This document shows positions 5,270 through 52,868 of a stretch of DNA of 64,000 nucleotides, piece after piece. The first letter of the stretch is position 1. The number at the start of each line of letters is the position of its first letter. A program made the position numbers and the translations under genes. The notes beneath the pieces are model-generated. The model was given only the letters and a program-made list of their open reading frames with translations. It ran no database searches and was not told where the DNA came from. The DNA comes from Calditrichota bacterium (GTDB lineage: Bacteria; Calditrichota; Calditrichia; RBG-13-44-9; J042): contig JAADJD010000027.1 in the NCBI GenBank assembly GCA_013150955.1, positions 33,522 through 97,521 of the forward strand, given 5' to 3'.

Positions 5270-5700
5270 TGATCCCGGATAACGCATTAGACCACGAATT
5301 GCACGAATGAAAACGAATAAAAAAATCCCAAATAAAGCGTTAAACCACGAATCACTCGAATGAATTCGAATAAAATCAACAAAATAGCGAATATATCCAG
5401 GAAAACATTTTTATCCAGATAGAATCAAGTGCATTTTATCCCAAATTATGCTTTAAACCACGAATTGCACGAATTAACACAAATAAGAACAATAAAATCC
5501 ATTGATTTAGATCTGTATGAAAATTCGCTCCGAGGTTTGTTCGTGATTTTATTGATATTTTTTGTGTTCATTTGCGTGATTCGCGGTTTAATGCATTATC
5601 TGGGTTTATTATTTTTATTGGTGTTAATTCGTGTGATTCGTAGGCTAATGCATAATCTGGGTTCATTCGCGCGATTTGCGGTTTGATGCATCATCTGTGA
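5270..5700. repeat. cluster of MITE-like TIR elements: one full forward copy (about 5441-5606), one reverse copy (about 5326-5440) and at least 3 extra arm fragments
   Basis: Matches the about 170-bp consensus seen at 11 other loci (left arm aacccagattatgcaatagcctacgaat…acacaaataaaa; right arm …ttcattcgcgtgattcgcggtttaatgcattatttgggtt, its imperfect reverse complement). Confidence 0.85.
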
Positions 5701-6125
5701 TGATTCGCTTTCTGCTGGTGGATTGGCCGTCTCCGTAAAATCGGTTCGAGATCCCGGTTGGAATGGCATCATGCATTGATGGCGTTCTCGCCAGGTGACC
5801 TTTTCCGCAAACATAGGGTTTGCCGGAAATTTTATTTTTCGTAAAACTTTCTCCTTGTGCCCGACGTAATATTTTCGCATAATTTTTGGGGCTTTTGAAA
5901 GAATCCGGGTGATTGCTTTTATGAAATGGGGGATGGCATTGTTTTTCGAAGGGCCGCTTTACGGTAGTTGAAGGCTGGGCGATTGAAAAGACCCCACAAT
6001 TTCCATAGATTATCCACAGCCCCCGGAAAGAACGTAACGGATTTTCGCCCCTGGCCATTGCCGGAATGCCGTGGCCAGTGGGTGATTGAGTAACACAGTA
6101 CGGATTGAAAAGGTAGAAGAGGCGT

Positions 6126-8348
6126 ATGCGGTATCTACAGTTTCTTTTATGGGTGGTCGTTTTGGGTCTGTTTGCAGACGCGGTAATCGGGCAGCAGTCG
6201 ACGATCATGCGTCTTCATCGCATTGATCAACCCATCAAGCTGGACGGGGTGCTGGATGAACCCGTCTGGGCGGAGATAGAACCCCTCCCTCTGGTCATGT
6301 CATCACCCACTTATGGGGCTCCACCGACTGAGCGGACGGAAATCCGCCTGGCTTATGATGAAAATTATCTCTACGCAGCGGGGGCGTTTTACGACTCGGA
6401 TCCCGGTGGGGTTCGGGCCAATACCCTGACCCGCGATGGGATCAATTTCAGCGATGATCGTTTTGCCATCATTCTGGACACGTTCAACGACAACGAAAAT
6501 GCGCTGGGGTTTGTGATCAATCCTGCCGGCGCTCGTAGCGATTTTGCCGTGTACAACGATGGGGAAAGCAATCGCGGCCCACCCCTGAATCGGAGCTGGG
6601 ATACTTTCTGGGATGCAGCCGTTGTCCGTACGGAAGAGGGCTGGTTTGCGGAGGTGCGCATTCCCTTCTCCAGCCTGCGTTTTCAGGATGATGAGGGCCG
6701 GGTGATTATGGGCGTGATCACCTGGCGAGCCATTGCCCGCAAAAACGAAGTGGTCACCTTTCCCGCCATTCCGTCCAAATGGCGCTGGGGATTGTACAAG
6801 CCATCCATTGCTCAGGATGTCCTCCTGGAAGGTGTTTATTCCCGAAAGCCCCTGTACGTAACTCCCTATTTGTTGGGTGGGGTGCAGCAAACACCATTCG
6901 TCGGAAGCAATGGATTGACCGGACAACTCACCACCGATCCCACCCGGGAAATAGGACTGGATGTGAAGTACAGCATCACCAGCAATTTAACCCTGGACGT
7001 TACCCTGAACACCGATTTTGCGCAGGTGGAATCGGATGATGAGCAGATCAATCTGACCCGATTTTCCCTGTTTTTTCCGGAGAAGCGATTGTTTTTTCAG
7101 GAGCGTGCCAGCATCTTCGAATTTCAAACCGGGCAGCAGTCGCGGGTATTTTACAGTCGCCGCATTGGATTGACCCGCGATGGCCAGCCGCTTCGGATTT
7201 ACGGAGGCGTTCGGTTGATCGGGCGCATCGGCAACTGGGATGTGGGACTGCTGGACATGCAGACGGCCCCCTACGAATCCACACCCTCGGAAAATTTCGG
7301 TGTGCTGCGCCTCCGTCGGCGGGTGATTAATGAGAATTCCTATGTGGGCACCATTTTCACCAGTCGGTTGGGGACGGATGGGCGGTTCAACTACGTGTAC
7401 GGGGTGGATGGGATTATTCGGGTGGTCAATGATGATTACCTGACCATCACCTGGGCCCAGTCCTTTGAAAATGGCCGTTCCCGCTGGGATCCGGGGAGCG
7501 GACGGTTGCGACTGGCCTGGGATAAGCGATCCGATCGGGGGCTGTTTTATCGCGCCCGATTGGGATGGTCTGGTGCGGATTACAATCCCGGCATCGGTTT
7601 TGTCCGCCGAAAAGATTTTACCCGCCTGGTGGGCGCCCTGGGTTATGGATGGTATCCGGGGCGGGAGTCGTTGTTATACAAGATGTCCCTTACCCTGCGT
7701 GCGGCCGCTTTTGTGCGCAACTCCGATCGTTCCATCGAAACCGCAGACGCGGGCCCGGAACTGCGCCTGAATCCCAAAATCGGGGGATTCCTGCGCATCT
7801 ATGCTTCCACCAATTACGAATCCATTCTGGACACCTTCCGCATTGCCAGCGATGCCTGGGTGCCGCCCGGAAATTATCAGTTTTATAAGGTCAGCATGTT
7901 TTTCATTTCCCCGTTTGGGTATTTGATTCGGGCGCGAGTTAATATGGACGCCGGGGAGTTTTATGATGGCTGGCGGGTGACTTTTGGATTGTCGCCCTCC
8001 TGGTCGATTTCCTCTCATCTGGAGGTGGGCGGAGAATATCAGATCAATCGAGTGCGCTTCCCTGGACGCAATCAAAAATTCGATGCAGACATCTTTCGAT
8101 TGCGGTTACGCGGCAACCTGGACACCCGCTTTTCCATGAGCTCGTTTATTCAGTACAATTCAGCCACCCAGAAAATTGGGATTAATGTGCGTTTCCGGTA
8201 TAATCCGCGGGACGGGAACGACCTTTACCTGGTATACAACGAGAACCTGGATGTGAACGGCAGCGATGCCATGCTGGTGGAAAATCGGACGGTTCTGCTA
8301 AAACTGACCTACACCTTTCAGCAACCGTTTCGCATGCCTTTGCTTTAA
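6126..8348 (+). CDS. secreted DUF5916 / CBM9-like domain protein with C-terminal beta-barrel-like region
   Basis: Signal peptide (MRYLQFLLWVVVLGLFADA). N-terminal domain resembles carbohydrate-binding family 9-like hydrolase domain proteins (DUF5916 architecture). 740 aa. Confidence 0.55.
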   Translation: MRYLQFLLWVVVLGLFADAVIGQQSTIMRLHRIDQPIKLDGVLDEPVWAEIEPLPLVMSSPTYGAPPTERTEIRLAYDENYLYAAGAFYDSDPGGVRANTLTRDGINFSDDRFAIILDTFNDNENALGFVINPAGARSDFAVYNDGESNRGPPLNRSWDTFWDAAVVRTEEGWFAEVRIPFSSLRFQDDEGRVIMGVITWRAIARKNEVVTFPAIPSKWRWGLYKPSIAQDVLLEGVYSRKPLYVTPYLLGGVQQTPFVGSNGLTGQLTTDPTREIGLDVKYSITSNLTLDVTLNTDFAQVESDDEQINLTRFSLFFPEKRLFFQERASIFEFQTGQQSRVFYSRRIGLTRDGQPLRIYGGVRLIGRIGNWDVGLLDMQTAPYESTPSENFGVLRLRRRVINENSYVGTIFTSRLGTDGRFNYVYGVDGIIRVVNDDYLTITWAQSFENGRSRWDPGSGRLRLAWDKRSDRGLFYRARLGWSGADYNPGIGFVRRKDFTRLVGALGYGWYPGRESLLYKMSLTLRAAAFVRNSDRSIETADAGPELRLNPKIGGFLRIYASTNYESILDTFRIASDAWVPPGNYQFYKVSMFFISPFGYLIRARVNMDAGEFYDGWRVTFGLSPSWSISSHLEVGGEYQINRVRFPGRNQKFDADIFRLRLRGNLDTRFSMSSFIQYNSATQKIGINVRFRYNPRDGNDLYLVYNENLDVNGSDAMLVENRTVLLKLTYTFQQPFRMPLL

Positions 8349-8430: not shown

Positions 8431-8698
8431 AAACCCGGATGATGCAATATCCTACGAATGACACGAATTCACCCAAATGATGCTTTAGACCACAAATTGC
8501 ACGAATTAACGCTAATAAAATTAATCCCAGATTAAGCAATAGCCTACGAATGACACGAATTAACACAAATAAAACTCATAAAATACATTGGATTGTGTCT
8601 GGATGAAATGTGTTCCAGGGTTTATTCGCGATTTTATTGATATTTATGGGTTCGTTCGCATGATTTGCGGTTTCATGCATCATCCGGGATAAACGGTT
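8431..8698. repeat. MITE-like element: two stuttered left arms (8431-8520) plus one full copy (8521-8698)
   Basis: Sequence identity to the family consensus. Confidence 0.85.
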
Positions 8699-8782: not shown

Positions 8783-9913
8783 TCATGAACGGAATGTTTT
8801 CAGAACCGTCTCCAGGGCGCTGGCACAGTAGAGCACGTTTTTGGGATTGCTTCCGTAACCCATGAGGCCAATACGCCAGATCTTTCCGGCCATCGGGCCC
8901 AGTCCCGCCCCGATTTCCAGACGGAATTCCTCCAGAAGCCGCTGACGTACCTGGGCATCGTCCACCCCGTCGGGAATCTGAACCGCATTTAGCTGGGGAA
9001 TCCGTTCCGCTTCGGGGACAAAAAATTCCAGTCCAATGGCTTCCAGTGCGGTTTTCAGCCGGAGGTGATTTTCCCGATGCCGTTGCCAGGCATTTTCCAG
9101 TCCTTCTTCCTTTAACATCACCAGAGCCTCGTGCAGGCCATACAGGTTGTTAATTGGCGCGGTGTGATGGTATGCCCGACGTTGTTGCCCGCCCCAGTAC
9201 TGCATGACCAGATTGACATCCAGAAACCAGCTCTGAACCGGCGTCTTACGATTTTGGATGTGTGCCACTGCCCGCTCATTAAAGGTGATGGGTGCCAGTC
9301 CCGGTGGAGCCGACAGGCATTTCTGGCTGCCGGAATAGACCACATCCAGTTCCCATTCATCCACCTTAAGGGGACATCCGCCCAGGGAGGTTACCGCATC
9401 GACGATCACCAGGCAGTCGTGTTGATGGGCGATGGCCGCCAGCGTGCGGGCGTCAGATAGAGCGCCGGTGGAGGTTTCCGCGTGAACGAATGTCACCACC
9501 CGTGCTTCGGGGTGGGCCTTTAAAGCGGCTTCCAGTTTTTCCGGTTCAATGGCCCGACCCCAGGGCGCTTCCACCACAACGGGCTGTCCACCACACCGTT
9601 CGACCATGGCCTGCATGCGACCACCAAATACTCCGTTCACGCACACAATAACCGTATCGCCCGGCTCTACCATGTTCACGATGGCGGTTTCCATGCCGGC
9701 AGATCCTGGCGCCGATACCACGAAAGTCATGTCGTTGCGGGTTTGAAAAGCGTACTGCAGCAATTGTTTTACCTGATCCATCATGCGGATAAATTCCGGA
9801 TCCAGATGGCCGATGGTGGGGCGGCTCATGGCCTCCAGCACACGTGGGCTGATGTCTGAGGGCCCTGGCCCCATTAAGATGCGCTGCGGGGGATGAAACG
9901 AAGTGATTTCCAT
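8783..9913 (-). CDS. class V aminotransferase (alanine--glyoxylate / serine--pyruvate aminotransferase family)
   Basis: 376 aa; PLP-lysine context …SGSQKCLSAPPG… and overall AGXT-like conservation. Confidence 0.8.
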   Translation of the reverse strand: MEITSFHPPQRILMGPGPSDISPRVLEAMSRPTIGHLDPEFIRMMDQVKQLLQYAFQTRNDMTFVVSAPGSAGMETAIVNMVEPGDTVIVCVNGVFGGRMQAMVERCGGQPVVVEAPWGRAIEPEKLEAALKAHPEARVVTFVHAETSTGALSDARTLAAIAHQHDCLVIVDAVTSLGGCPLKVDEWELDVVYSGSQKCLSAPPGLAPITFNERAVAHIQNRKTPVQSWFLDVNLVMQYWGGQQRRAYHHTAPINNLYGLHEALVMLKEEGLENAWQRHRENHLRLKTALEAIGLEFFVPEAERIPQLNAVQIPDGVDDAQVRQRLLEEFRLEIGAGLGPMAGKIWRIGLMGYGSNPKNVLYCASALETVLKTFRS

Positions 9914-9946
9914 GAGATCCTCCTGATGGTCATTCTCTGCAATTTT

Positions 9947-10446
9947 TAACCCGGATTAGATATTCGTAACCGTTTCATTCGTATTAAACCCAGATTATGC
10001 ATTAGCCTACGAATTACACGAATTAACACAAATAAAACAAATAAAGTACATTGGATTGTATCTCGATAAAAATGTGTTCCACGGTTTATTCGCGATTTTG
10101 TAGATATTTTTTGGTTTCATTCGTGTGATTCGCGGTTTATTGCATAATTTGGGTTAAAATCGATCGTTTCAATTAAAATGATTTAAGCAAACACCGGATA
10201 CATTTTGCTTACGAAAATATCGTATTCCAAGAATTTATTTTTATCCCAATTCATGCGTCAAACCGCGAATCATGCGAATGAATTCGAATAATATCAACAA
10301 AATAGCGAATATATCAAGGAAAACATTTTTCGTCCAGATAGAATCCAGTGCATTTTATTTTATTTGTGTTCATTCGTGTCATTCGTGGTTCGAATGCATA
10401 ATCCGGTTCTATTTTTTGCATCATTCGTGGTTACGGCAATATCCGG
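9947..10446. repeat. two MITE-like copies in opposite orientation (forward about 9986-10157, reverse about 10240-10446) plus a partial arm
   Basis: Identity to family consensus. Confidence 0.85.
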
Positions 10447-10461
10447 GTTTGGTGAATTTAG

Positions 10462-13893: not shown

Positions 13894-14155
13894 GGGTGCG
13901 TTAGCATTGTCGCACTTTGGGTCAGGCCGGCGAAAAATTTTGTTTTTCTGCATCCCGGCCTTATATTATTCGCCAGCTTAAATGATTGTCGGATTGGACG
14001 GCGTTCGAGAGGTTCCGGTCGAACGGTTCGGAGGACGATTTCCCCCGCCCGCTGAACCCGATGGATAAGCGGGTCCCCTTTTCTGAACCCGCCGACACGT
14101 TCGCATTTCGCCACCCTTTCCGGGTATGCTTACCAAAAAATGGAGGAAAGCGGTC

Positions 14156-14821
14156 ATGTTTGTGGGACATTACGCAGCCAGCCTGATGTTAAAACAAGTG
14201 GATCGGCGCCTGTCGCTGGGATGGTTGTTTCTGGCAGTCCAGTTTGTGGATATTCTGTTTTTCCCGCTGGTTTTGCTGGGCATTGAACGGTTGAACATTG
14301 TGGAAAATTATACCGCTTCCACTCACTTTGAACTGGTGTACATGCCCTTTACCCATAGCCTGGTGGCCTCGTTTATCTGGGCGTTCATTGTTTATGGTGG
14401 GGTGCGTTTGCTTTCCCGAAAACAGCGCTGGTTTTATCCCGCGGCAGCCGGTGCGATGGCGCTGGCGGTATTGTCTCACTGGTTCCTGGATTTGCTGGTC
14501 CACACCCCGGACCTTCCCCTTCTGGGGGACAGTTCCCTGAAATTGGGATTGGGATTGTGGAATCATGCGCTGGCAACTTACCTGCTGGAAGCGGGCCTGC
14601 TGATGCTGGGACTGTTCCTGTATTTGAAGTCCACCCGCGGCAGTGGATTTCTTGGAAAGTATGGAATGATTATGTTCACGGTGTTTTTATTGCTGGCGAA
14701 TGGTCACAACATTTTCGGACCGCCCATGGGTGAAAGTGTGGCCGCACTGTCGGTTTCAGCCCTGATGTCTTATTTCGGCTTTGCAGGATTGGCTTTCTGG
14801 CTGGATCGGTACCGGCATTAA
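14156..14821 (+). CDS. integral membrane protein, YdjM-like (inner-membrane metal-dependent hydrolase family)
   Basis: Six predicted TM helices. MFVGHY…HSL…HWFLDLLVHTPDLPLL resembles PF04307-type proteins. GGAGGA RBS before ATG 14156; the track ORF starts 30 nt upstream. Confidence 0.5.
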   Translation: MFVGHYAASLMLKQVDRRLSLGWLFLAVQFVDILFFPLVLLGIERLNIVENYTASTHFELVYMPFTHSLVASFIWAFIVYGGVRLLSRKQRWFYPAAAGAMALAVLSHWFLDLLVHTPDLPLLGDSSLKLGLGLWNHALATYLLEAGLLMLGLFLYLKSTRGSGFLGKYGMIMFTVFLLLANGHNIFGPPMGESVAALSVSALMSYFGFAGLAFWLDRYRH

Positions 14822-14828
14822 CCTAAAA

Positions 14829-15010
14829 TAATCCCAGATTATGCATTAGCCTACGAATGACACGAATTCACACAAATAAAACCAATAAAATACATTGGAT
14901 TGTATCTGGATGAAAATGTGTTCTGGAGTTTATTCGCGATTTTGTAGATATTTTTGGGTTTCATTCGTATGATTCGCGGCCTAATGCATTATTTGGGATA
15001 ATGCATAACC
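14829..15010. repeat. MITE-like element, forward orientation
   Basis: Identity to family consensus; starts 8 bp after the stop of the upstream gene. Confidence 0.85.
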
Positions 15011-18007: not shown

Positions 18008-18174
18008 AAATGGCGGCTCCCAATTTTCTGATCAAAGACTTTTGCACCGGAAAAAATTTTCTTATAATTAGCGGCGCATTTTCGCACGGAATCGGATGTG
18101 GCCTTCGGCCAGAGTCGGGACGAATCCCCCGGCTGAAGGATCGGGCTGGCCGGATGGCATCGCGTTGGGTTATA

Positions 18175-18318
18175 CCCGGATTATGGATAAGACCACGAAT
18201 TAACACAAATAAAAGATTCTATCTGGATGAAAATTTGTTTCGGGGTTTATTCGCGATTTTGTGGATGTGTTTTGGTTTTATTGGTGTTATTCGCGGTTTA
18301 ATGCATTATTTTGGTTAA
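18175..18318. repeat. MITE-like element (slightly truncated copy) ending 4 bp before the speE RBS
   Basis: Identity to family consensus arms. Confidence 0.8.
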
Positions 18319-20300: not shown

Positions 20301-20872
20301 GGGAGAACCTCCTCTATTGTTTGTGGATTCGGTTTAAATTATGCATTTTCATATAAATTTCCACGAATTATTTCCATGCGTTTGGCCGTTTTAGGTTGCA
20401 AAACATCCATTTCCGGAGATCGGATAATGCGCATTTAGAAAAAAGAGCGGAATAGGGATCGTATTTTTCATCCGGATGTTGCATTCCCCGACGGCTCACT
20501 CCGGCCATATTAGAGAGGCGATTTAACAAAGCCATCTGCCGGCATCTCTGGCCAATCTTCTTCTCGATGCCTCATTCAGTAACATATGGTTTCTCTTAAT
20601 GTTCACGGGTATCCTTCGCGGTGCCGGATCGTTCAAATTAAAAAAATGTTCGGGCTCAATTTAACATTTGCCATTGCTTTTTAGCGCTATTTAATTAATA
20701 CATGATTTCCAGAACAAGGGCAAGTAAATCCGAAATTTTGGGAAAATCGCTGGTAGAAAATGGCGGAGGTAGAGGCAGAATGGAGTTTAATAATTTATTT
20801 TTTATTCATTTAACGCGCCTGCCGGGCGATAATAGCTTAGAATAAAAACACAAAAGGCGGTCGATATCCAGG

Positions 20873-21769: not shown

Positions 21770-21802
21770 TCGCCAATCGGTGGTCTGCAATGAAGAGGCT
21801 TT

Positions 21803-22030
21803 TAACCCCGATTATGCCTTAGACCGCGAATTACACGAATGAACACCAATAAAAATAATAAAGTACATCGGGTTGTATCAGGATGAAAATGTGTTTCGGT
21901 GTTTATTTGCGGTTTTGTGGATACGTTTTGGTTTCATTCGCGTGATTCGCGGTTAAATGCATTATTTGGGTTTATTGCATTATTGGGGTTAATTCGTGTG
22001 GTTCGTCGGCGATTGCGTGATCCGGGTTAA
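21803..22030. repeat. MITE-like element, forward, with an extra duplicated right arm (21986-22030)
   Basis: Identity to family consensus. Confidence 0.85.
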
Positions 22031-34527: not shown

Positions 34528-34540
34528 GGGAATTCCTGTT

Positions 34541-37288: not shown

Positions 37289-37420
37289 AGGCGGCGCCGC
37301 ATGGCGTTGGCCGGGTAGCCGGTTGTTTTTACAGGAGATTCATTTTGCTGGATTGGTACGGTGGTGGGATGACTCTTCAGACAGGACGCGAATTTGAGGT
37401 TTTTCCAGCCGGAGATGTTT

Positions 37421-37592
37421 GACCCGGATTAATCATTAAACCACGAATTACACGGATGAACACAAATAAAATTAATATGAAATAAATTTAATTGTATCTG
37501 GATGAAAACTTGTTTTCGTGATTTATTCGCGATTTTGTGGATGGATTTTGGTTGCATTCGTGTGATTCGCGGTTTAACACATTATTCAGGAT
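37421..37592. repeat. MITE-like element, forward
   Basis: Identity to family consensus. Confidence 0.85.
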
Positions 37593-37732
37593 AAGGTCGG
37601 AGGCCTGGAGTACAGCCGGTTCAGCGGACGGTTTTTGTTCAACACCCGGTTTTGAAAATCAGAAAAATCTTCGGAAACCTCAAGATTCCGTTATAAATTT
37701 GGCATTGCGGATGAGAAAATGTGAGGAGACAT

Positions 37733-39019: not shown

Positions 39020-39145
39020 ACGGTGCCGGAGAACCACGCCCGCAACGAATTTTTGAGAAAATTCCCTCGTCTCTGCAAGTCTGGACAGGGGATAGAATGA
39101 GCGTGTTTTCGATAGATTTCGGAGCGGGATTCAGATGGTTCGTTT

Positions 39146-39320
39146 TAACCCGGATAATGCATGAAACCACGAATCACACGAATGAATCCAAAAATATCAA
39201 TAAAATCACGAATAATCCCCGGAACTATTTTTATTCAGATATAACTGATGTATTTTATTGTTATTATTCGTTTTAATTCGTGTAATTCGTAGACTATTGC
39301 ATAATCTGGGTTCATCAGGT
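39146..39320. repeat. MITE-like element, reverse orientation
   Basis: Reverse complement of family consensus. Confidence 0.85.
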
Positions 39321-39405
39321 AAAAGGATTGTTTTCCGGGAAGTGAGTCGTTTTCGTACGTCTGCTTTTCTCTGCTGAGTTTCCGCAATGAGAAAGGATCG
39401 GAGAG

Positions 39406-40263
39406 ATGGATGACAAACCATTGGCTGTGTTTTACCAGGGGGTAGAGGCCTCTCTGAAAGCGGCTCTGGAGGATTTCCGCCGAACTCATGTACCCCGCTC
39501 CCGGCGCATTGGCGATACAAATTGGGAGTACCTGCTCACTGGATCGGGAGATGAGACGGTGCTGTTTTTACACGGAATGGCAGGTGCCTGGGACATCTGG
39601 TGGCAACAAATTCTGGCGCTTCGGGAGCATTTCCGAATCCTTTCGCTGACCTATCCACCGGTTTATCCTCTGGCCGCACTGGAGCAGGGCATTCTGGCAC
39701 TGCTGGATCAGGAAGGCATTGAAAAAGTGCATCTGGTTGGCACCTCGCTGGGAGGCTACCTGGCCCAGTATCTCTTTAGCCGACAGCCGTACCGGGTGCT
39801 CCGCGTGGTGCTGTCCAATACTTTTCCTCCCAATTCATTGATTGCCCGGAAACATCGGTTTACCGGCAAATGGTTGCCGCTTGTCCCCGAAAAAATCTTG
39901 CTGCACCAATTCCGAAAACATGTGCAGCGGGTGATTTATCCCACTTCGGGGTATGACGAATTAACACGAGCCATGCTGATGGAGATGTTCCAGGAGCGCA
40001 TTCACAAAGCCCACATTCTGGCCCGGTTTCGGTGTGTGATGGAATCCTTCCCACTCCGTGTGCCAGAGGTGCCGCTGTTGATCATCGAGTCGGCCAACGA
40101 TCCCTTGGTGGAACTCGAGCTGCGCGCATTGTTGCGCAAGGCTTATCCCGATGCCCGCGTGTTTACCTTTCCAGATGCCGGACATTTCCCTTATTTGAAT
40201 CGCGCACAGGAATATTCCCGGCAACTGTTAACCTTCCTAAAGGAACCGGTTCAACTGAAGTGA
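39406..40263 (+). CDS. alpha/beta-fold hydrolase
   Basis: Nucleophile elbow GTSLGG; HGxxG oxyanion region; C-terminal GHFP catalytic His. Confidence 0.75.
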   Translation: MDDKPLAVFYQGVEASLKAALEDFRRTHVPRSRRIGDTNWEYLLTGSGDETVLFLHGMAGAWDIWWQQILALREHFRILSLTYPPVYPLAALEQGILALLDQEGIEKVHLVGTSLGGYLAQYLFSRQPYRVLRVVLSNTFPPNSLIARKHRFTGKWLPLVPEKILLHQFRKHVQRVIYPTSGYDELTRAMLMEMFQERIHKAHILARFRCVMESFPLRVPEVPLLIIESANDPLVELELRALLRKAYPDARVFTFPDAGHFPYLNRAQEYSRQLLTFLKEPVQLK

Positions 40264-40290
40264 TGGGAAAGGGTTGCCGGTTAAGCAATT

Positions 40291-40460
40291 AAACCCAAAT
40301 TATGCAATAGCCTACGAATGACCCGAATGAACACCAACAGAAATAATAAAATGTACTGGATTCTATCCGGATGAAAATGTTTCCTGAATATATTCGCTAT
40401 TTTGTTGATTTTTTTCGAATTCATTCGCGTGATTCGCGGTTTAATGCTTTATTTGGGATA
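40291..40460. repeat. MITE-like element, forward
   Basis: Identity to family consensus. Confidence 0.85.
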
Positions 40461-40536
40461 TCATCTTCACCTGTATCGGTTTTCAACAGGGACGTCCGGG
40501 ATTTTTCTCTCCCCCCATTGACAAATTCCCGGTGGA

Positions 40537-41220
40537 ATGTTACTTTGTAATATGAACCGGTTGCGCTGGAAATGGATCTTCATCACCCTTTCCCTGGCGG
40601 CGGTCGTGGGTGCGGTAACCTTTCGCTTTTTCCCCGAGTATGTGGGACTGGTCTGGTTGTTTTTTTACATCATCCCCAGTAATTCATTCATTCCATTTCC
40701 CCATGAACCCGCTATTATCTACTACGGTAAATTGTATGGCCCCATGTTAACCACACTTACGGCGCTGGTGCCCACCATCATCGCCTGTTACATCGATTAC
40801 GAGGTGCTCACTCCGGCATTTGATCGTACCCGGTTGGGAAAAATTCGCCACACCCGTGTGTACCGCAAAACGCTGTATTATTTTTCCAAGGCGCCTTTTT
40901 TCACCAATGCGTTTGCAGCGCTGTCACCGGTGCCGTTCTATCCGGTGCGGATCCTGTCCATCAGCAGTGGATACCCCGCGTATAAATACACGCTGGCGGT
41001 GCTGCTGGGTCGATTACCCCGGTATTTTATTCTGGCTTACGGCGGTGCGGCGTTGAATGTCCCCAACGGGGTGATCTTGCTTTTCTTTATTGGCATTTTA
41101 ATTTCCATTGCCATTCAACGATGGCGCAAGCCGGCAACGGCATCGCCCGAAATGGCTTTTGTTCTGGAGCCTGCAGAGGACGCCAAACCGGTTCGGAATT
41201 TCTGGGCAACCAAACAGTAG
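40537..41220 (+). CDS. DedA / VTT-domain (SNARE-associated) family membrane protein
   Basis: Polytopic. …PFPHEPAIIYYGKLYGP… and …RLPRYFILAYGGAAL… resemble the VTT re-entrant-loop motifs. Confidence 0.5.
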   Translation: MLLCNMNRLRWKWIFITLSLAAVVGAVTFRFFPEYVGLVWLFFYIIPSNSFIPFPHEPAIIYYGKLYGPMLTTLTALVPTIIACYIDYEVLTPAFDRTRLGKIRHTRVYRKTLYYFSKAPFFTNAFAALSPVPFYPVRILSISSGYPAYKYTLAVLLGRLPRYFILAYGGAALNVPNGVILLFFIGILISIAIQRWRKPATASPEMAFVLEPAEDAKPVRNFWATKQ

Positions 41221-42682: not shown

Positions 42683-43045
42683 AACCCAAATAATGCATTA
42701 TACCCAAATAATGCACTAAACTACGAATCACGCGAATAAATCCTAAAAATATCAACCCAAATAAAGCGTTAAACCACGAATCACGCGAATGAAAACAAAA
42801 AATATATTATAAAATCGCGAATAAACCCTGGAACACATTTTCATCCAGACACAATTCAATGTATTTTATTGGTTTTATTTGTGTTAATTCGTGTCATTCG
42901 TAGGCTATTGTTTAATCTGGGATCAATAAAATAGCGATTAAATCCCGGAACACAATTTTATCCGGATATAATCAAACGGATTTTATTATTTTTGTTCGCG
43001 TTAATTCGAGTAATTCGTAGGCGAGTGCCAGATCCGGGTTCAAGG
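42683..43045. repeat. cluster of MITE-like elements, reverse orientation (one full copy about 42771-42935, a second partial copy, stuttered arm fragments)
   Basis: Reverse complement of family consensus. Confidence 0.85.
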
Positions 43046-43373: not shown

Positions 43374-45662
43374 ATGAACACGTTGCAAAGGCGTTTGTTG
43401 CTGCTGTTCTTTCTGGTTGGTATTGTGCCATTCATGCTGATCGTGGTGTGCAGTTCAGTAAAAAGCCGCGGATATTTTAAAGAACAGCAACTCCGCAATC
43501 TTGAGCAGTTGGCAGACGTCAAAAACACCGCGCTACACGGCCATTATCAATTGCTTCTCCGGAATGCGGAAGCAATGGCGCAATTGCCCGCACTGGTGTC
43601 ATTCCTGCAAACGTACAATCAGTCCGGGGAACGCGTGCTGGATGAGCGGAACAGGGAATACCGCCAGGTATATCAGGCATTGCTTGCCTATCAGGAAAGC
43701 CACTGGGGGGTGTTTCATCACGTATTTCTGGCCGACGCCAGCGGCAGGGTTATTGTCAGTCCAACGCATCTGGCAACCAACACCGATCACCAGGGGGCAT
43801 CCGTCCGCGACGTACCCTATTTCCGGCAGGCATTAAAAGAAACCCGATTTACCGACTATTTTGGATTCCAGGAATCGGATCATTATCACCAGTTGTTACT
43901 ACAACCGGTGTTTGATGAAGCGGGACGGGCACTGGGCGTGCTGGTGTTTGAAGTGGAAATTGAAGAAATTTTAAATTTCCTGAATCGGGACGTGCAAAAG
44001 GTAAAGGGGGAAGGGGTTTTCCTGACCACCCTTTCGGGATACCGCATCACGCGGGATAAGCAGGCGTTCCGCCAGCAGGTGCACAGTCCGGGAATCTCTC
44101 AGGCGCTCACCAGTGGCAAGGCCGTTGGATTTTTCCGCAACGCCGATGGGCAGGAAGTCGTTGGCGTGTACCTCCGCGACGACACCTATCCCTACGTGCT
44201 GGCGGTGGAAATGGATAAGCAGAGTGTATTTGCCTCCGTGAACCGGCACTTCTGGATCATTCTTATGCTGTCCTTTCTGGCCATCGGGGGCATTGGCATT
44301 GCGCTGGCATACGCCGGCAAGCGCATGGCGGAACCGTTGATTGAAATGACCAATGTGGCCAGGCGCATCACGGAAGGGGATTTGAAAAATCGCATTCACA
44401 TCAACAGCACCACCCGCGAGATTGTGGATTTGTCCAATGCCATCAATCACATGGTGGATACGCTGGAAGAATCCCGCGAAGCCCTGCAGCGCCAGAAAGA
44501 ATCCGTGGAAAAAGAAGTGGAAAAAGCGGTGAAGCGCGCAGAGGAAGAAAAGGCCTATTTGAACGAAAGTTTCGCTACCTTGCTGGATGCCATGGATCGA
44601 TTTGCCCGCGGCGACTTGACGGTACAGTTGAAAGCCAATGGTCGCGATGAAATTGCCCGCCTGTTTGAGGGATTTAATCGCGTGGTGCAGATTTTCCGCA
44701 CCATCATCCTGGAATTGAACGAGATGGTCATGGCCACGTTGCAGGTTTCGGAAAACATTCGCATGTCCACGGAGCGGCTGGCGGTTGGAGCCAGCGAGCA
44801 GGCTTCCCAGGCGGGAGAAGTCTCGGCCGCGGTGGAAGAGATGGCTCAGACCATCCTGGAAAATTCCCGCAATGCCAATCAAACGGCAAAGCTGGCGGGA
44901 GAAAACGGTCAGGTGGCGCAGGAAGGTCGCAAGGTGGTGGATCAAACGGTGGAGAAAATCCGGGAAATTGCGGATGTGGTGCGGCAGTCGGCACAAACGG
45001 TGGAACAGCTGGGACAATCCAGTACCAAGATTGGGGAGATTGTTTCGGTGATTAACGATATTGCCGAGCAGACCAATCTGCTGGCCCTGAATGCTGCCAT
45101 CGAGGCGGCGCGCGCCGGTGAGCAGGGCAAAGGGTTTGCCGTGGTTGCCGATGAGGTGCGCAAGCTGGCGGAGCGCACCACACAGGCCACCCGACAGATT
45201 GCCACCATGATCGAGGCCATTCAATCGGAAACCGATGCTGCGGTAAAGGCCATGCAGAAGGGCAACAAAGTGGTGGATGAGGGCATTCAATATGCCGATC
45301 AGGCGGGGCAGGCGCTGGAGAAAATCGTAAACAGTGCCCAGGAAGTGGTGAACATGATTCAGCACATTGCCGCCGCCAATCGGGAGCAGACCACGGCCAG
45401 CGAGCAGATTTCCCGCGGCATCGAAACCATCGCCGCCGTTTCTTCGGAGTCGGCCAATAGCATTTCCCAGATCGTCCAAATTGCCGATCACCTGAAGCAG
45501 TTAACCGAAAAATTGCGCAATCGCATTCGGGATTTTAAAATGGATGGGGCAAATGAGTGGGTGGATCGGACAGCGACGCCATCGGATTCTCAGCCACCGG
45601 AAACACCCGATCCGCTGATCTCCACATTGCCTCAGAACGGTTCCAATGGAAAAGGGGAGTGA
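43374..45662 (+). CDS. methyl-accepting chemotaxis protein with N-terminal periplasmic Cache-like sensor, HAMP and MCP signalling domains
   Basis: TM1 ([18 protein letters not shown]), periplasmic about 280 aa, TM2, HAMP, then highly conserved MCP domain (…[31 protein letters not shown]…). Confidence 0.88.
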
Positions 45663-45731
45663 TGGTTCCCGGATGACGCATGCCAGTTGCTCGAAAATCG
45701 ATTCGCCCGGATCGCACGGTGTCGATAATCG

Positions 45732-45762
45732 CCCGTCCCTGCAGGACGGGTGCGCTGTTTTA
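45732..45762 (+). terminator. putative terminator after the MCP gene
   Basis: Hairpin CCCGTCC-ctgca-GGACGGG followed by TGCGCTGTTTT (weak, interrupted T-run). Confidence 0.35.
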
Positions 45763-46267
45763 GGTGGATTTGAGGGGAATGGGGAACCTTCGCGGCCGGT
45801 TTCGGGCAGGCCAGGGGGCGTTCCTGATCGGCGGTGCCGGAAAATGTAAACACCAGGAGAAAACAGTTGGTTTTCGGAAATTTTTTGTGTAAAATTTTGA
45901 AAAAGAAAAATGGGATCAATATCGGGGTTACCTGCCTGGAGCCAGAAATAATGGCACCTGACGTCCGCTGAACAGCAGTCCATTTGGGATAAAAAGGCTT
46001 AAAACAGAGAAGCAAGAATGGCGGTTTGCCTGTTGGAAAAATCGCGGCGGTGTTTTTGCAGGTTCCCCGAACACACGGAATAAAAAGTGAGCAAGGGAAT
46101 CGCCGAACCATCCGGGGGCCAGGATTCCAGAGATGGTGAAAGCGTGTTTTTTGCCCTGGAGCAGGAAGGTGCCAGATGCGACTTTCTAACCGTGTTGCAA
46201 AAAGTAGGGGTAGGTATTATATTTGTAGGCTTTAATTCAATGAAAGAAAATAAAATAAGGTTGATCT

Positions 46268-47650
46268 ATGCAGTTTAATATCGAAGAAGTCAGTCCCAGC
46301 AAACGGAGAATCAAGATCACGCTGGAGCCGGAAGAAGTTGGCCAGATTGAAACCCAGGTGGTTCGCAAGTATCAGAAAGAAGTCCAGGTACCTGGATTTC
46401 GTCGCGGCAAGGCACCTGTGGGGATCATTCGCAAACGGTATGAAGAGTCCATTAAACTGGACGTGATTGAGGAGGCCATTTCCCGATTTTATGGCCGGGT
46501 ACTGGACGAGAGTAAGCTCAATCCCATTTCCCAGGGGAAAGTGACCGATATTCAATTCGAGGATGTCCAGAAAGGCATGGAGATTCAGGTGGAAGTAGAG
46601 GTTGAGCCGGAGATTGAGCTGAAAAAGTACAAGGGATTAAAGGTCGAAAAAGATATGGTGATTGTCACCGAGGCCATGGTACAGAAGGTATTGGAGGATT
46701 TGCAGGAGCATTTTGCCATAGCCAGGGATGTGGATGAAAGTAAAGAAGGCCATTGGATTACCTTCGACATTCAGCAGCTGGGCGAAGGGGATGTGCCCAT
46801 TGTGGGGCGAAAGTATGAAAATGTGACCGTGAGAATTGGCTCCGGCGATTTTGATCCCGAACTGGAGAAGCAGTTGATTGGTGTGAAGGTCGATCAGAAA
46901 GTGGTGGTGCGGCGAACCGTTCAGCCACCGGAAGGAGCAGAGGATCAGGCGCCGCGGGTGGAGTCCTATGAAATTACCGTGAAGGCGATTCAGGAAAAGG
47001 AATATCCGGAATTGAATGATGATCTTGTAAAAGAGCTAAACGAAGAAAACATTGACACGCTGGAAGATTTAAAGGTGGCCATTCGCAAAAACTTGCAGCG
47101 GGAATTGGAAGAGCGGAGCCGTCGGGAGTTTATTGATCGATTGATCCTTGAAGTATTGAAAGAAAATCCATTTGAAGTTCCAGAAGGTATGGTCGAACAT
47201 TATCTGGATCATATTATTGACGACCTGAAACGGCAGTCTGATGATCAGCCAATTGATGAGGCAGCGATTCGTGAAGCGTATCGGCCTGAGGCAATTCAAA
47301 GGGTTCGCTGGATCATCATTAAGAATAAGATCATCGAAATCGAGAACCTGTCCGTATCCGAGGAAGAGATCGATGAGGCCATTGACAAGTTGGAAATTCC
47401 AGAAGATCAGCGTGAGCAACTGCGGCAAATCGACGCATACCGATGGCAGCTGGCTCATGATTTGTTGGACGAAAAGGTGATCCGATTGCTGGAGCAACAC
47501 GCCGAGATTATTGAAGTGAAGCCCAAATGGATAAAGGAGGAGTACGCATCGGTTTCGGCTGAACCAGAAAAGAAAAAATCCAAAAAGAGCGGAACCAAAT
47601 CCCGTAAAGGAAAGAATCAGAACAAAGGGAAAGACGATTCAGAAACATAG
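46268..47650 (+). CDS. tig: trigger factor
   Basis: Full-length three-domain conservation (…GFRRGKAP…). Acidic/lysine-rich C-terminal tail. Confidence 0.92.
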   Translation: MQFNIEEVSPSKRRIKITLEPEEVGQIETQVVRKYQKEVQVPGFRRGKAPVGIIRKRYEESIKLDVIEEAISRFYGRVLDESKLNPISQGKVTDIQFEDVQKGMEIQVEVEVEPEIELKKYKGLKVEKDMVIVTEAMVQKVLEDLQEHFAIARDVDESKEGHWITFDIQQLGEGDVPIVGRKYENVTVRIGSGDFDPELEKQLIGVKVDQKVVVRRTVQPPEGAEDQAPRVESYEITVKAIQEKEYPELNDDLVKELNEENIDTLEDLKVAIRKNLQRELEERSRREFIDRLILEVLKENPFEVPEGMVEHYLDHIIDDLKRQSDDQPIDEAAIREAYRPEAIQRVRWIIIKNKIIEIENLSVSEEEIDEAIDKLEIPEDQREQLRQIDAYRWQLAHDLLDEKVIRLLEQHAEIIEVKPKWIKEEYASVSAEPEKKKSKKSGTKSRKGKNQNKGKDDSET

Positions 47651-47680
47651 CCAAATTGAGCAAAAGGAGGGATCACGTTT

Positions 47681-48274
47681 ATGGCGTTAGTGCCAATTGT
47701 TATTGAGCAAACCGGACGGGGTGAACGTGCGTACGACATTTACTCCCGGTTGTTAAAAGAGCGCATTATTTTTCTGGGAACACCCATTGACGATAATATC
47801 GCCAGCCTGATTGTCGCCCAATTGTTGTTTCTGGAAGCGGAAAATCCGGAAAAAGACATTCACCTGTATATTAACAGTCCGGGTGGAATTGTCACCGCCG
47901 GTCTGGCGATTTACGATACGATGCAGTATATTAAACCCGATGTGGTTACCTACTGCATTGGGCAGGCGGCCAGCATGGGGGCCATTTTGCTGGCGGGTGG
48001 TGCCAAAGGCAAACGCTTCGCATTGCCCAATTCGCGGATCATGATTCATCAACCGCTGGGTGGTGTGGAAGGTCAGGCGACCGATATAGATATTCATGCC
48101 CGTGAGATTTTAAAGATTCGGGAGCGGTTGAATCGCATTCTGGCGGAACGTACCGGTCAACCCATCGAAAAGATTGAGCAGGACACCGACCGAAATTTCT
48201 TCATGAGCGCCACAGAGGCCAAGGAGTACGGGCTGATCGATAAAATATTAAGTCGCCGGGAAAATGAAAAATAA
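47681..48274 (+). CDS. clpP: ATP-dependent Clp protease proteolytic subunit
   Basis: Catalytic triad contexts (…GQAASMGA…, …IHQPLGG…). Confidence 0.95.
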
Positions 48275-48289
48275 TCAGAGTGAGCCTAT

Positions 48290-49537
48290 ATGACCAATAA
48301 GAAGAAGTTTAATCATGAGATTCAGTGTTCCTTTTGTGGCCGCCGGGCCCATCAGGTGGAGCAATTGATTACCGGGATGTCCGCCAGCATATGCGATGAA
48401 TGCGTACGCAGCGCCTCGGAAATTTTGAAGAGCTCGCGCTATCAGCAATTGCAAACCGGTGATTTTAAACTCCCCAAGCCAAAAGAAATCAAAGAGTTTC
48501 TGGATCAGTACGTGATTGGCCAGGAAAAGGCCAAAATTGCGCTATCGGTGGCGGTGTACAATCACTACAAGCGGATCACGTTTGGGGAGTTTGATGATGA
48601 TGTGGAAATTGAAAAGAGCAATATTTTGTTGATTGGCCCCACGGGTGTGGGAAAAACCCTGCTGGCCCAGACGCTGGCTCGCCTGTTGCACGTCCCCTTC
48701 TCCATTTCCGATGCCACCACCCTTACCGAAGCCGGGTATGTGGGAGAAGATGTGGAGAATATCCTGGTGCGATTGTACCATGCCGCCAATTTTGAGATCG
48801 AGGCGACCGAACGGGGCATCGTGTACATCGATGAGATCGACAAGATTGCCCGAAAGGCCGGTAGTCCATCCATTACCCGCGACGTGTCCGGCGAGGGCGT
48901 CCAGCAGGCGCTGTTGAAAATCCTGGAAGGCACCGTTTCGGCCATTCCACCTAAGGGGGGACGGAAACATCCCGAAGCTCCCATGGTGCACATCAACACC
49001 CGGAACATTCTGTTTATCTGCGGGGGAGCTTTCGATGGGCTGGCCGAAATCATCAGTCGCCGCATTGGTAAAAAAACCATGGGATTCCATGCTGAATTGC
49101 AGGATCGCAATCTGTTCAAAAGCAGCCGAATTTTTGATTATGTGGAACCCGAAGATCTGATCGAATACGGGTTGATTCCCGAGCTGGTGGGACGATTACC
49201 AGTGATTGTGGGGCTGCGCGAATTGAGCGATTCGGAATTGCTTTCCATTCTGGTGGAACCAAAGAATTCCCTGATCAAGCAATACAAAAAGTTGTTCGAG
49301 CTGGAAGGGATAGAGCTGAAGTTTACCGAGAAGGCCTTGCAGGAAATTGTAAAACTGGCTCAGAAACGCAAGACAGGCGCCCGTGGTTTGCGAAGCATTC
49401 TGGAAAGCGTGATGATGGATGTGATGTACAAGGTGCCTTCCCTGAAGAATGTTCGGGAATGCCTGATTACCGAAGACGTTATTCTGGGTAAAGCGGATCC
49501 TGTGTTAAAAATGGACGATTCCCGCCAGTCCGCTTAG
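48290..49537 (+). CDS. clpX: ATP-dependent Clp protease ATP-binding subunit ClpX
   Basis: N-terminal C4 zinc finger (CSFCGR…CDEC), Walker A GPTGVGKT, sensor motifs. Confidence 0.95.
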
Positions 49538-50054
49538 ATCGAGGATGAGGGTGTGATTGCCTTTCCCCGGCATATGACGTGTACACTGGAATGGCGGTAG
49601 GATTGAACGGATAGATCACCATTCCGCATTGACTGCTCCGATAACCTCAAGGTGTTCGATGCGTGGCTGTTTAAATTCCCGGATTCTGCACTTTTATCGG
49701 ATTTCACCTTTCATTGGATTGGGGTTGAATGGGAAGGCAAATGATTTCCCCGTTTTCTCGCTCGTAACAGGCTTCCTGGAATTTTCCATCTCTACTGACA
49801 CCCTGAAAGGCGAATGGTCACAAATTCAATCAAAAAAGATGGGTAAAATTGTTTTATTTTAGAAAAAATGGGTTGCATCTGTAAAACAGGATTGGGTTTT
49901 GTTCGCATTGGCGGGATCCAGGAAAAGGGTTTAATCCGGTAATGGGTAATTTTCGCATATTCATGTGTGTTTTTTAAGGATTTATTTTTATTCATGTCAC
50001 TGGGTGACTGAAAATACAATCAAGATGTATTAAAAGCAGAAAAGAGATAATACG

Positions 50055-52400
50055 ATGAAATATCAACGCATTTTAAAAGGGGATGAAGTTCTGGACATTC
50101 CAGAGACGCTGCCGGTGATCCCCGTGCGCGATCAGGTGATTTTCCCTTACTCCGTCGTTCCCTTGCTGATTGGTCGGGACAAGTCCCTGAATGCCCTCAG
50201 CGCAGCCTACGAATACGACAATCTGATCTTGCTTTCCAGCCAGAAGAATGCCGACAAGGAGGAGATCAAAGCGTCCGATATTTATCGCATCGGAACCGTG
50301 GGAAAGGTGCTTCAGGTTCTGGATTTGCCGGATGGATTGATGAAAGTGGTGGTGGAAGGCATTATCCGCGCCCGCATCCGACGCTTTCGCCGGCATCCCT
50401 ATTTTTTTCTGGCAGACATCGAAGTGTACGATGAAGAGGAAGATTTTCCCGCGGCAGCACGGGATAAACTCAAGCAGCTGTTTTATTACTTTGACGAATA
50501 CGTGAAGTTGGTGCCGGATCTACCGTCGGAAATCGCCGAGCATTTGCGGCAACAGGGGGATCCCTACCGTATGATCGATTTTGTGGCGCTGCACCTGCAA
50601 ACGGACATCGCCGAAAAGCAGAAAATTCTTAAAGAGATTGACGTCAGCAAACGCCTGCGGTTGTTGATTTCGTTGCTTCAGCGCCTGATCAGTTACGAAC
50701 GCATCCGGGCGGAAATCGATCAGCAGGTGCAGGAGAATTTGTTGAAAAACCAGCGGGACTATTACCTGCAGGAAAAACTGCGCATCATCAACCAGGAGCT
50801 GGGAGAAGAAGAAGAGGAGTCTCCGGAAATTAAAAAGCTGGAGAAGTTGATTCGAAAGGCGAAGATGCCCCGGCAGGCGCAGGAAAAAGCGTTCGAGGAA
50901 CTGGACAAGTTGCGGAAAATCCCACCCTTTTCTCCGGAATATACCGTCATCCGGAATTATCTGGACTGGATGGTACAGGTGCCCTGGAGCAAACGCACCC
51001 GGGATGAAACCGATATTTTAAAAGCCAAAAAGATTCTGGATGAAGACCATTACGGATTGGAGAAGCCCAAGGAACGGATTGTGGAGCATCTGGCGGTGTT
51101 GCAGCGGGTAAAAAAGATAAAAGGGCCGATTTTATGCCTGGTGGGCCCACCGGGTGTGGGGAAGACTTCTCTGGGAAAATCGGTTGCCCGGGCTCTGGGA
51201 CGAAAATTTGTGCGCGTCTCGCTGGGTGGGGTGCGCGATGAGGCGGAAATTCGTGGTCACAGGCGAACCTACATCGGTTCCATGCCTGGAAAAATTATTC
51301 AGAACATGAAACGTGCCGGCACGGTGAACCCAGTGTTTTTACTGGATGAGGTGGACAAGATGAGTATGGATTTTCGTGGCGATCCATCGGCGGCGCTGCT
51401 GGAAGTGCTGGATCCCGAACAGAACAAGGCGTTCAACGATCATTATCTGGATGTGGATTACGATCTCTCCGAAGTCTTTTTTATCACCACGGCAAATGTT
51501 CAGGCCAACATCCCACGTCCGTTGCAGGATCGCATGGAAATCATTGAATTGCCGGGCTATCTGGAGCACGAAAAGGTGGAAATTGCCCGGCGCCACCTGA
51601 TTCCCCGACAGTTAAAGGAAGCCGGGTTGAAGAAGCACGAATTACAGATTACCCGGGAAGCCATTCTGCGGATGATCCGGGAATATACCCGGGAAGCCGG
51701 GGTGCGGAACCTGGAGCGTCAGATTGCCACCCTGTGCCGGAAAAGCGTACGCAAGTTGGCCGAACATCCGGACTTGAAACAGATTGTGGTCACCGAAGCC
51801 AATCTGGAATCATTTCTGGGCAAACCCACTTATCTGAATCGCCATTTTTCTCTGAAGGACGAGGTGGGTGTGGCAACAGGATTGGCCTGGACGGAATACG
51901 GTGGCGATGTGCTGCGGATCGAGGTCACCATTTTCCCAGGAAAAGGCCAGTTGATTCTCACCGGCAAGCTGGGGGAGGTCATGCGAGAATCGGCCCAGAC
52001 GGCGGTGAGTTACATCCGTTCCATTGCCACCGAACAGGGAATTCCCCGGGAAAAATTCGAGAAAAACGATATTCACATTCACGTACCGGAAGGGGCTATT
52101 CCCAAAGATGGGCCTTCGGCGGGCATCACCATTGCCACGGCAGTGCTGTCGGCTTTTCTGGAACGGCCGGTGCGGAACGCGATCGCGTTAACCGGAGAGA
52201 TCACCCTGCGGGGAAAAATTCTGGCCGTGGGTGGACTGAACGAAAAATTACTGGCAGCACAGCGAAATGGTATTCCAACCGTTATCGTGCCCCGGGAGAA
52301 CAAGAAGGAAGTGGATGACCTTCCTCAGGAAATTCAGGAGGGGGTGACCATCCTCCAGGTCGAAGACTATCGGGAAGTGATGGAAAGGGTGTTTGTGTAA
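50055..52400 (+). CDS. lon: Lon protease (LonA)
   Basis: N-terminal LON domain, AAA+ (GPPGVGKTS), C-terminal Ser-Lys dyad (…DGPSAGIT… / …[12 protein letters not shown]…). Confidence 0.95.
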
Positions 52401-52623
52401 TTTTCTGGAAGACATTTGGGTAAGCTTCCCTTCATCAGGATTAACCGCTGGGCTGGATTGAGCTGCATGTGGGCGTCCTTTTCCGGAACAATTTACCTGC
52501 CAGACTTTGACAGTTATTTTTTGTAAATCATTGTTTTTATTGAATCGAAATCTCAAAAATTGCGAAAGTTGTCCGCAGGTTTCTTGGGTTGCAAGAAAGG
52601 AATCGGATCGGGGAACACGTGTT

Positions 52624-52868
52624 TAACCCGGATGATGCATTAGACCACGAATTTCACGAATTAACACAAACAAAATTAACCCAGATTAAGCAATAGCCTA
52701 CGAATTACACGAATTAAGACGAATAAAACCGATAAAATACATTGGATTGTGTCTGGATGAAAATGTGTTCCAGAGTTTTTTCGCGATTTTGCAGATATTT
52801 TTTGGCTTCATTCGCGTGATTCGTGGTTTAACGCTTTATTCGGGATTATTTGGGTTTAATTTACTTGA
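52624..52868. repeat. MITE-like element, forward, with a duplicated left arm
   Basis: Identity to family consensus. Confidence 0.85.

Follow-up and report, generated by a model that had tools for sequence, protein, structure and literature searches.

A stretch of 64,000 nucleotides from a Calditrichota bacterium (contig JAADJD010000027.1, positions 33,522 to 97,521, referred to hereafter as the window) carries a family of ~173-bp repeats that we interpret, with a probability of roughly 80%, as lineage-specific, non-autonomous DNA transposons, that is, MITEs (miniature inverted-repeat transposable elements). The elements have defined ends, duplicate 5 bp of target, sit inside one another, lack coding capacity, are absent from five orthologous regions of a sister species and have diverged to a degree that dates the family as old; we infer both mobilisation in trans and the type of enzyme that may be responsible. 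The family is new and well documented, with clean evidence of nested insertion, in a barely studied phylum. Its main interest lies in the ends of the element, whose CGAAT boxes link it with a widespread pairing of inverted arms with genes for GxxExxY proteins, a pairing of which we found no published description.

Architecture of the element family

The family is present at all 12 of the intergenic loci that an earlier reading of the window from its letters alone (the sequence-only reading) had named. A 25-nt piece of the consensus proposed there has 11 matches at three or fewer mismatches in the window, against none in 100 shuffles, and that consensus agrees with the one we built from an alignment of 13 units. 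De novo repeat search recovers the 173-nt family together with families of shorter end modules (44–67 nt, up to 17 copies). From an alignment of 31 end pieces we built an nhmmer profile of the end module (~58 nt; consensus t.AaCCCagAT.AtGCatTA..CcaCGAAT.ACaCGAATgAAc.CaAA), which finds about 36 copies (35 hits when E<1e-5 is demanded, 38 when E<=1 is allowed), every one of them inside the 12 regions. Module copies on the + strand lead and those on the − strand trail in all 12 regions, such that the AACCC tip always faces outward.

The standard unit comprises a left A-type module (TAGCCTACGAATkACACGAATTAAC), a core of ~55–75 nt and a right, inverted B-type module (TAAACCGCGAATCACGCGAATGAAACC). 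The two modules are ~75% alike across 45–50 nt and form the terminal inverted repeats (TIRs) that had been proposed for a single, non-coding, intergenic family; the imperfection of the TIR is by design, because the A and B ends differ systematically and the unit has two distinct ends. Full ~173-bp units number 15 (lengths 148–176 bp), in both orientations as anticipated (10 forward, 5 reverse), and consist of 13 uninterrupted units plus two hosts interrupted by another copy. The sequence-only reading had offered to be refuted if its loci shared merely short simple-sequence similarity; they share instead a 173-bp architecture across which the 13 uninterrupted units align end to end. Element DNA totals ~3.0 kb, or 4.7% of the window. 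The picture of 12 loci of ~170-bp elements holds for the loci themselves and requires amendment at five long ones (5270–5700, 42683–43045, 52624–52868, 8431–8698 and 21803–22030), which are nested or stacked copies and not single elements; a supposed decayed remnant at 20325–20385 scores only 1.3 bits against the profile and was dropped.

The units are non-coding and below 500 bp, as is usual for MITEs, with neither an open reading frame (ORF) of note nor any similarity to GxxExxY proteins. Domain searches found no transposase-like domain in any sizeable ORF of the window, which bears out the earlier statement that it holds no transposase gene.

Nested copies and a 5-bp target-site duplication

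Nesting provides the strongest evidence of transposition. Units 5440–5604 and 42756–42921 each sit inside a unit of reverse orientation, and in each case we removed the inner copy plus k extra bases in silico, scoring the remainder on a unit profile built without the hosts. In these two independent cases excision restores full-length hosts (profile positions 2–171 and 2–170), and the score is maximal at exactly k=5 (157.6 versus at most 152.9 bits, and 131.6 versus at most 127.2 bits). Because of this nesting and the outcome of excision, we regard the long loci as stacked insertions into earlier copies.

Unit ends read 5'-CCC...GGG-3' between AT-rich 5-mers. Perfect (5/5) direct repeats flank 4 of the 13 units (5440–5604, TTTAT; 9989–10153, TTAAA; 14833–14997, ATAAT; 42756–42921, ATCAA), whereas shuffling of right flanks among units yields a mean of 0.92 perfect pairs, with four or more arising at P ~0.005 (P ~0.006 for summed matches). 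A fifth perfect pair, TTTAA, surrounds an outer mini-element at 52627–52854. The target-site duplication is 5 bp, and the duplicated 5-mers, which have in common T at position 2 and A at position 4, suggest a loose WTNAN target preference.

These features can be assembled into a candidate mechanism. Each end (~45–50 bp) has 5'-CCCRRATnATGCA as its outer tip and, inward of it, CGAAT boxes, two or three in number, at intervals of 9 bp; an enzyme encoded elsewhere would bind both ends and place the unit into AT-rich DNA (~WTNAN) by a cut with a 5-bp stagger, repair of which would leave the 5-bp duplication. The AT-rich linkers of the element itself would make good targets, allowing copies to accumulate inside one another, and insertions within genes would presumably be purged, leaving copies only between genes and mostly at gene 3' ends.

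Comparison with a sister species, and age of the family

An identical GroES and a hydrolase of 81% identity led to two contigs (L013 and L016, from ENA ERZ27262642) that belong to a sister species. Their synteny with the window extends over positions 44055–58237 and 28313–40805, respectively (~26.7 kb in all, genes 80–88% identical), and they contain zero modules anywhere, whereas the window carries five element loci in the orthologous regions. Gap lengths are consistent with insertion, the gap after the hydrolase gene being ~165 nt shorter in L016.

Compared two by two, the 13 units are 73–90% identical (median 79%), with no pair above 90%. The family is old and lineage-specific; copies described earlier as near-identical are not so, and identities of 73–90% lend no support to the recent burst that had been deduced from the density of copies.

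Locus map and genomic setting

The window encodes housekeeping functions, among them xseA, isocitrate lyase, malate synthase, speE, gltX, trigger factor, clpP, clpX, lon, groES and groEL, with sigma-54 activators and an extracytoplasmic function (ECF) sigma factor. A 285-aa alpha/beta hydrolase of the window is 100% identical to an NCBI protein assigned to a 'Calditrichaeota bacterium' metagenome-assembled genome. All copies are intergenic and mostly near gene 3' ends, with four loci that separate convergent genes, eight that separate co-directional ones and zero in divergent spacers (for these counts the gene call near 5 kb was adjusted by a Pfam match to xseA).

The locus at 5270–5699 (no overall orientation) is nested in three layers: an outer module pair (5270–5322 on the + strand, 5659–5699 on the − strand) without a core; a middle layer formed by the reverse host unit (~5327–5661), split into 5323–5435 and 5609–5665; and an inner forward unit running from CCC at 5440 to GGG at 5604, with TTTAT flanks at 5435–5439 and 5605–5609. 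At 42683–43042 (−), a terminal fragment (42683–42703) adjoins a reverse host unit split into 42699–42751 and 42926–43042 around an inner reverse unit (CCC 42756, GGG 42921; ATCAA flanks 42751–42755 and 42922–42926). The locus at 52622–52859 (+), downstream of the groEL terminator and missing in L013, consists of the outer mini-element (module 52627–52675 plus a right tip with GGG at 52852–52854; TTTAA flanks 52622–52626 and 52855–52859) enclosing a forward unit at 52676–52848 (flanks ATTAA and ATTAT).

Stacking takes simpler forms elsewhere. Between convergent genes, the locus at 8432–8692 (+) has two truncated extra left modules (8432–8478 and 8469–8524) ahead of a full forward unit (8522–8692), and at 21802–22030 (+) a forward unit (21802–21974) is followed by an additional right-hand module (21975–22030). 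The locus at 9950–10449 (no overall orientation) joins a decayed short fragment (9950–9985), a forward unit (CCC 9989, GGG 10153; TTAAA flanks 9984–9988 and 10154–10158), a reverse unit (10241–10406) and a module fragment (10418–10449).

Single units occupy the remaining loci. That at 14829–15001 (+; CCC 14833, GGG 14997; ATAAT flanks 14828–14832 and 14998–15002) begins 8 nt past the stop codon of ORF 14126–14821, and a 148-nt forward unit with an internal deletion (18171–18318, +) ends 19 nt upstream of the spermidine synthase start codon. The forward units at 30166–30336 (+) and 37419–37594 (+, downstream of the epimerase gene's own terminator at 37308–37325) and the reverse unit at 39145–39314 (−, B end leftmost) are all missing from the orthologous regions of L016; at the forward unit 40290–40461 (+), the orthologous gap of L016 is ~165 nt shorter.

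Some further features of the window deserve record. Neither Pfam nor NCBIfam gave a match for ORFs 20873–21769 (+, 298 aa) and 24440–25099 (−, 219 aa), of which the former terminates 33 nt before the element at 21802. A tandem array at 30434–31451 (8.8 units of 113 nt, 87% matching) adjoins tRNA-Asp (31421–31495, minus strand); its units, read on the minus strand, resemble degenerate tRNA-Asp pieces (D-arm, anticodon-stem-like and T-arm) plus a GGGGAGC...GCTCCCC terminator hairpin. Only the intact first tRNA-Asp is recognised by ARAGORN and Rfam, and L016 has a single unit. The clpX–lon spacer (49537–50055) is ~240 nt longer than in L013, the extra DNA being unrelated to the MITE family.

CGAAT-box arms outside the window

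Each arm carries CGAAT boxes 9 bp apart (e.g. ACGAATTAC ACGAATTAA CACAAATAA), two of them strong and one degenerate in the window element, with a fifth box in the core. The B-arm 21-mer CATTCGYRTGATTCGYGGTTT is found in at least 120 metagenome contigs, for a chance expectation of ~2 hits per 10^12 bases. There, the arms form hairpins (AACCACGAATCACACGAATGACACGAAT – loop of 10–100 nt – ATTCGTGTCATTCGTGTGATTCGTGGTT) in unrelated flanks, many of whose genes we take, from reading representative sequences, to be of kinds typical for Planctomycetota. Against the unit profile these hairpins match at positions ~20–155 only, and hence they share the arms and not the CCCAGATTATGCAT tips; beyond the arms, lineage-specific stretches rich in purines and in pyrimidines extend the inverted repeat. 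No target duplication or target motif could be demonstrated in the hairpin surroundings.

On genome contigs, matches listed for a degenerate module pattern are mostly chance singletons, with useful side hits in L002, L003, L004, L009, L011 and L012. Among the genome matches listed, motif variants occur in Verrucomicrobia (L004, L012), Planctomycetaceae (L011), a Calditrichia metagenome-assembled genome (MAG; L003) and a Proteobacteria MAG (L002); 2.9 million viral contigs gave zero matches. Neither Rfam nor the literature on the motif, on GxxExxY/PF13366 and on Planctomycetes repetitive extragenic palindromes (REPs) yielded a family or a published description of CGAAT-box arms.

The Proteobacteria MAG (FK3.bin53) has three intergenic hairpins within 8 kb (2602–2768, 4254–4425 and 6516–6660), whose arms hold four CACGAAT boxes at 10–11-bp spacing, with TTAACC...GGTTAA as bounds; the motif class seems to have expanded here independently and to high density. 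In the Calditrichia MAG (2700–3010), runs of the short repeats AAATTCCAAAT / CCAAATCCCAAAT lie directly upstream of two ATTCGTG-box arms ending in GGTTTAATGC, an extension present in the B module of the window as well.

Arms enclose GxxExxY genes

At several loci the arms stand 435–570 bp apart around a 124-aa ORF, identified as a GxxExxY protein (TIGR04256 at 3e-42; PF13366 PDDEXK_3 in precomputed annotation) with the PD...ELK nuclease motif kept in every example. Among the 120 metagenome matches listed, GxxExxY genes or C-terminal fragments of them occur 12 times, in every case at most 48 nt from an arm. In five of the 12, a fragment sits in a hairpin that has no other gene, which is what deletion derivatives should look like: the last ~30 GxxExxY codons lie in the hairpin loop (L034 at 9791–9948, L069, L072, L106 and L119), in keeping with a cassette that bore the gene and lost internal sequence. 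Clustering of ORFs beside arms at the same 120 loci gave no recurrent transposase, GxxExxY alone being recurrent.

For a less biased test, three GxxExxY homologues were chosen by protein similarity alone (Singulisphaera acidiphila CP003364.1, near 982 kb, and two large MAG contigs), and all three genes proved to be bracketed by arms. A Bacteroidota MAG (L009, 6261–6745) carries a 53%-identical GxxExxY gene between 45-nt inverted arms with GCGAAT and CACGAAT boxes. With this one, arm-bracketed genes of Planctomycetota and Bacteroidota were recorded at L139 (9955–10490), L140 (9862–10440), L141 (9958–10425), L057, L068, L073, L114, L121 and L132. The cassettes have 40–47% GC in genomes of 62–64% GC.

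Cassettes whose genes are only 67% identical in nucleotide sequence have arms with a median identity of 96% over 25 nt. At variable positions, agreement between an element's two arms does not exceed chance, and these arms are not more alike than arms of different elements; without covariation, it is the sequence that is constrained and not the pairing, a constraint that points to recognition by a protein. Since the arms are far better conserved than the enclosed genes, a testable proposal follows, namely that GxxExxY proteins might bind or cut the arms and so move the cassettes.

The cargo between arms can vary: in L108 (8434–8924) the same arms surround a 99-aa ORF in place of GxxExxY, with no NCBIfam family, which by eye we take to resemble a HigB-type toxin. 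The promoter/start region of this ORF holds AGATTATGCAT, an 11-mer also found in the outer tip of the window element.

The GxxExxY family is very large, with over 7,900 clusters at E<=1e-20 as a lower bound, and has no sequence relative in the PDB. PF13366 appears in a survey of PD-(D/E)XK proteins as of unknown function and multiply transferred (PMC3424549). A tblastn search of the window with GxxExxY gave no significant match (best E 0.74), and the MITE core holds no coding remnant of it.

Weighing the transposon interpretation

Several observations count against reading the family as MITEs. Only 4 of the 13 units keep perfect duplications, and AT-rich flanks inflate chance matches. Column conservation is 95% in the CGAAT boxes, 87% in the outer tips and 84% in other columns, so that internal boxes exceed the outermost tips, which is unusual for transposon ends. 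The 64-kb window yielded no autonomous partner, and four aligned intergenic regions no base-exact empty site, the intergenic DNA of the sister species being too diverged. No pair of copies is more than 90% identical, which gives no sign of current activity.

That the CGAAT boxes are the best-conserved columns would also suit dispersed sites for a host nucleoid or regulatory protein that recognises them, the repeat being a mere vehicle retained for that role. The 96% identity of boxes between elements of other phyla with 67%-identical genes agrees with this, as does conservation of arm sequence without covariation; yet such sites leave the spread of copies, their 5-bp duplications and their nesting unexplained, and only GxxExxY, which lies inside the arms, accompanies the boxes consistently. 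We therefore consider a host binding-site array unlikely.

Each unit is also able to fold into a long hairpin (z = -2.9 to -5.0), on either strand (z = -3.9 and -5.0), and the copies mostly adjoin gene 3' ends, with 0 loci between divergent genes, which could suggest selection for a function, be it as a structured non-coding RNA or as an insulator or intrinsic terminator acting in both directions. Good folding is however what any TIR produces. RNAalifold on the 13-unit alignment returns a covariation term of +0.86, with compensated double changes in 3 of 33 pairs; Rfam, at gathering and at permissive thresholds, finds only tRNAs and a meaningless match to a plant miRNA precursor; terminator-like and promoter-like sites are at shuffle level in a scan of 36–43.4 kb; groEL and the epimerase gene each keep their own terminator upstream of the element; and the sister species does without the element at the same sites. 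The proposal of the sequence-only reading that copies act as bidirectional terminators or insulators thus finds no support here, and selection for such a function appears very improbable, a secondary terminator role for copies remaining conceivable.

Least probable of all are REP doublets (REPINs) copied via single-stranded hairpins by a single-copy REP-associated tyrosine transposase (RAYT, of the HUH type), for although the elements are dense and intergenic, stack in clusters, fold into long hairpins, pair a shorter module in inverted orientation and contain CTAC, the reverse complement of GTAG, in their A-type modules, they have 5-bp target duplications (REPINs and IS200/IS605 relatives make none), their B-type modules lack a GTAG/CGTC tag, a single module forms no stable GC-rich palindrome, paired columns do not covary and the window has no RAYT gene.

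Candidate mobilising enzymes

The MITE interpretation leaves the enzyme to be considered. An IS1380-like DDE transposase is a tenable candidate, to be held tentatively; a GxxExxY-type PD-(D/E)XK protein seems possible and somewhat more doubtful; and an enzyme of another kind altogether is the outcome we would sooner expect, at rather less than even odds.

The IS1380 pattern of CC ends with a 4–5-bp AT-rich duplication is seen here (CCC...GGG; TTTAT, TTAAA, ATAAT, ATCAA). Inverted repeats of this family are ~14–20 bp and are not known to contain CGAAT-box arrays. ISEcp1 has the left inverted repeat CCTAGATTCTACGT and 5-bp AT-rich direct repeats (PMC6061673); both ends begin 5'-CC, and the window element, starting CCCAGATTATGCAT, matches 7 of the first 8 bases of CCTAGATTCTACGT, whereupon the likeness stops. 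This match, noticed post hoc, is a weak indication, a lead and not a sign of membership. A BLAST search of the unit against plasmids returned only a 27-nt AT-rich match in Clostridium.

Action of a GxxExxY protein on the CGAAT boxes is likewise a lead, supported by the identity of the arms and by the A-type 19-mer CCTACGAATGACACGAATT beside the GxxExxY gene of L114; against it, the window contains no GxxExxY gene or remnant. More broadly, arms and GxxExxY may together constitute an undescribed, cross-phylum class of mobile cassettes, with GxxExxY as an end-binding nuclease and both the gene-less hairpins and the 173-bp MITE as non-autonomous derivatives, a proposal that we put forward as a speculative one with the odds against it. 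Were GxxExxY to move cassettes, an orphan nuclease family would gain a function and prokaryotes a new kind of mobile element; were an IS1380-like transposase to move the MITE instead, this would be an ordinary, though tidy, case.

Other origins were set aside. IS200/IS605 elements have no TIRs, make no duplication and end in subterminal hairpins, and IS630/Tc1-mariner elements duplicate TA; these were the prime candidates of the sequence-only reading, and the 5-bp, AT-rich duplication speaks against either. Long TIRs together with this duplication are at odds with an IS200/IS605 origin, and the excision score peaks at 5 bp and not at the 2 bp that IS630/Tc1-mariner would require. Tn3-family transposons and the Tn3-derived inverted-repeat miniature elements (TIMEs) make a 5-bp AT-rich duplication and have ~38-bp inverted repeats with ends reading 5'-GGGG inward; the duplication length fits a TIME, but the window ends read 5'-CCC inward.

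Comparison with known systems

The window elements fit the general definition of MITEs in PMC10969869. With prokaryotic MITEs at large (Correia/NEMIS, Chunjie, QMITEs) they share a size below 500 bp, absence of coding sequence, TIRs, direct repeats in the better-preserved copies, insertion into AT-rich intergenic DNA, a capacity for stem-loops, and copies that vary in size or are truncated. They differ in their TIRs of ~45–50 bp, compared with a typical 4–30 bp (PMC10969869), in the 9-bp-spaced CGAAT boxes, unlike left and right ends and frequent self-nesting, and in that no cognate insertion sequence is known for them.

With TIMEs they have in common a 5-bp AT-rich duplication and long inverted repeats, without similarity to the Tn3-family inverted-repeat consensus. 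Their resemblance to REP/REPIN–RAYT systems and bacterial interspersed mosaic elements (BIMEs) lies in intergenic repeats at high density, a shorter module in inverted pairs, and clusters; the window modules, in contrast, stack in direct orientation on each side and do not alternate, and they have no universal tag.

A further comparison is with the GxxExxY cassettes. The window elements have no gene or remnant, two strong boxes per arm against three, additional CCCRRATnATGCA tips, and clear 5-bp duplications where none can be demonstrated for the cassettes. In both, CGAAT boxes recur every ~9 bp in inverted arms around a middle that varies, the outer extensions are particular to the lineage and gene-less derivatives abound; the B end of the window element has the identical degenerate 21-mer in common with the arms, and the A-end 19-mer recurs beside a GxxExxY gene.

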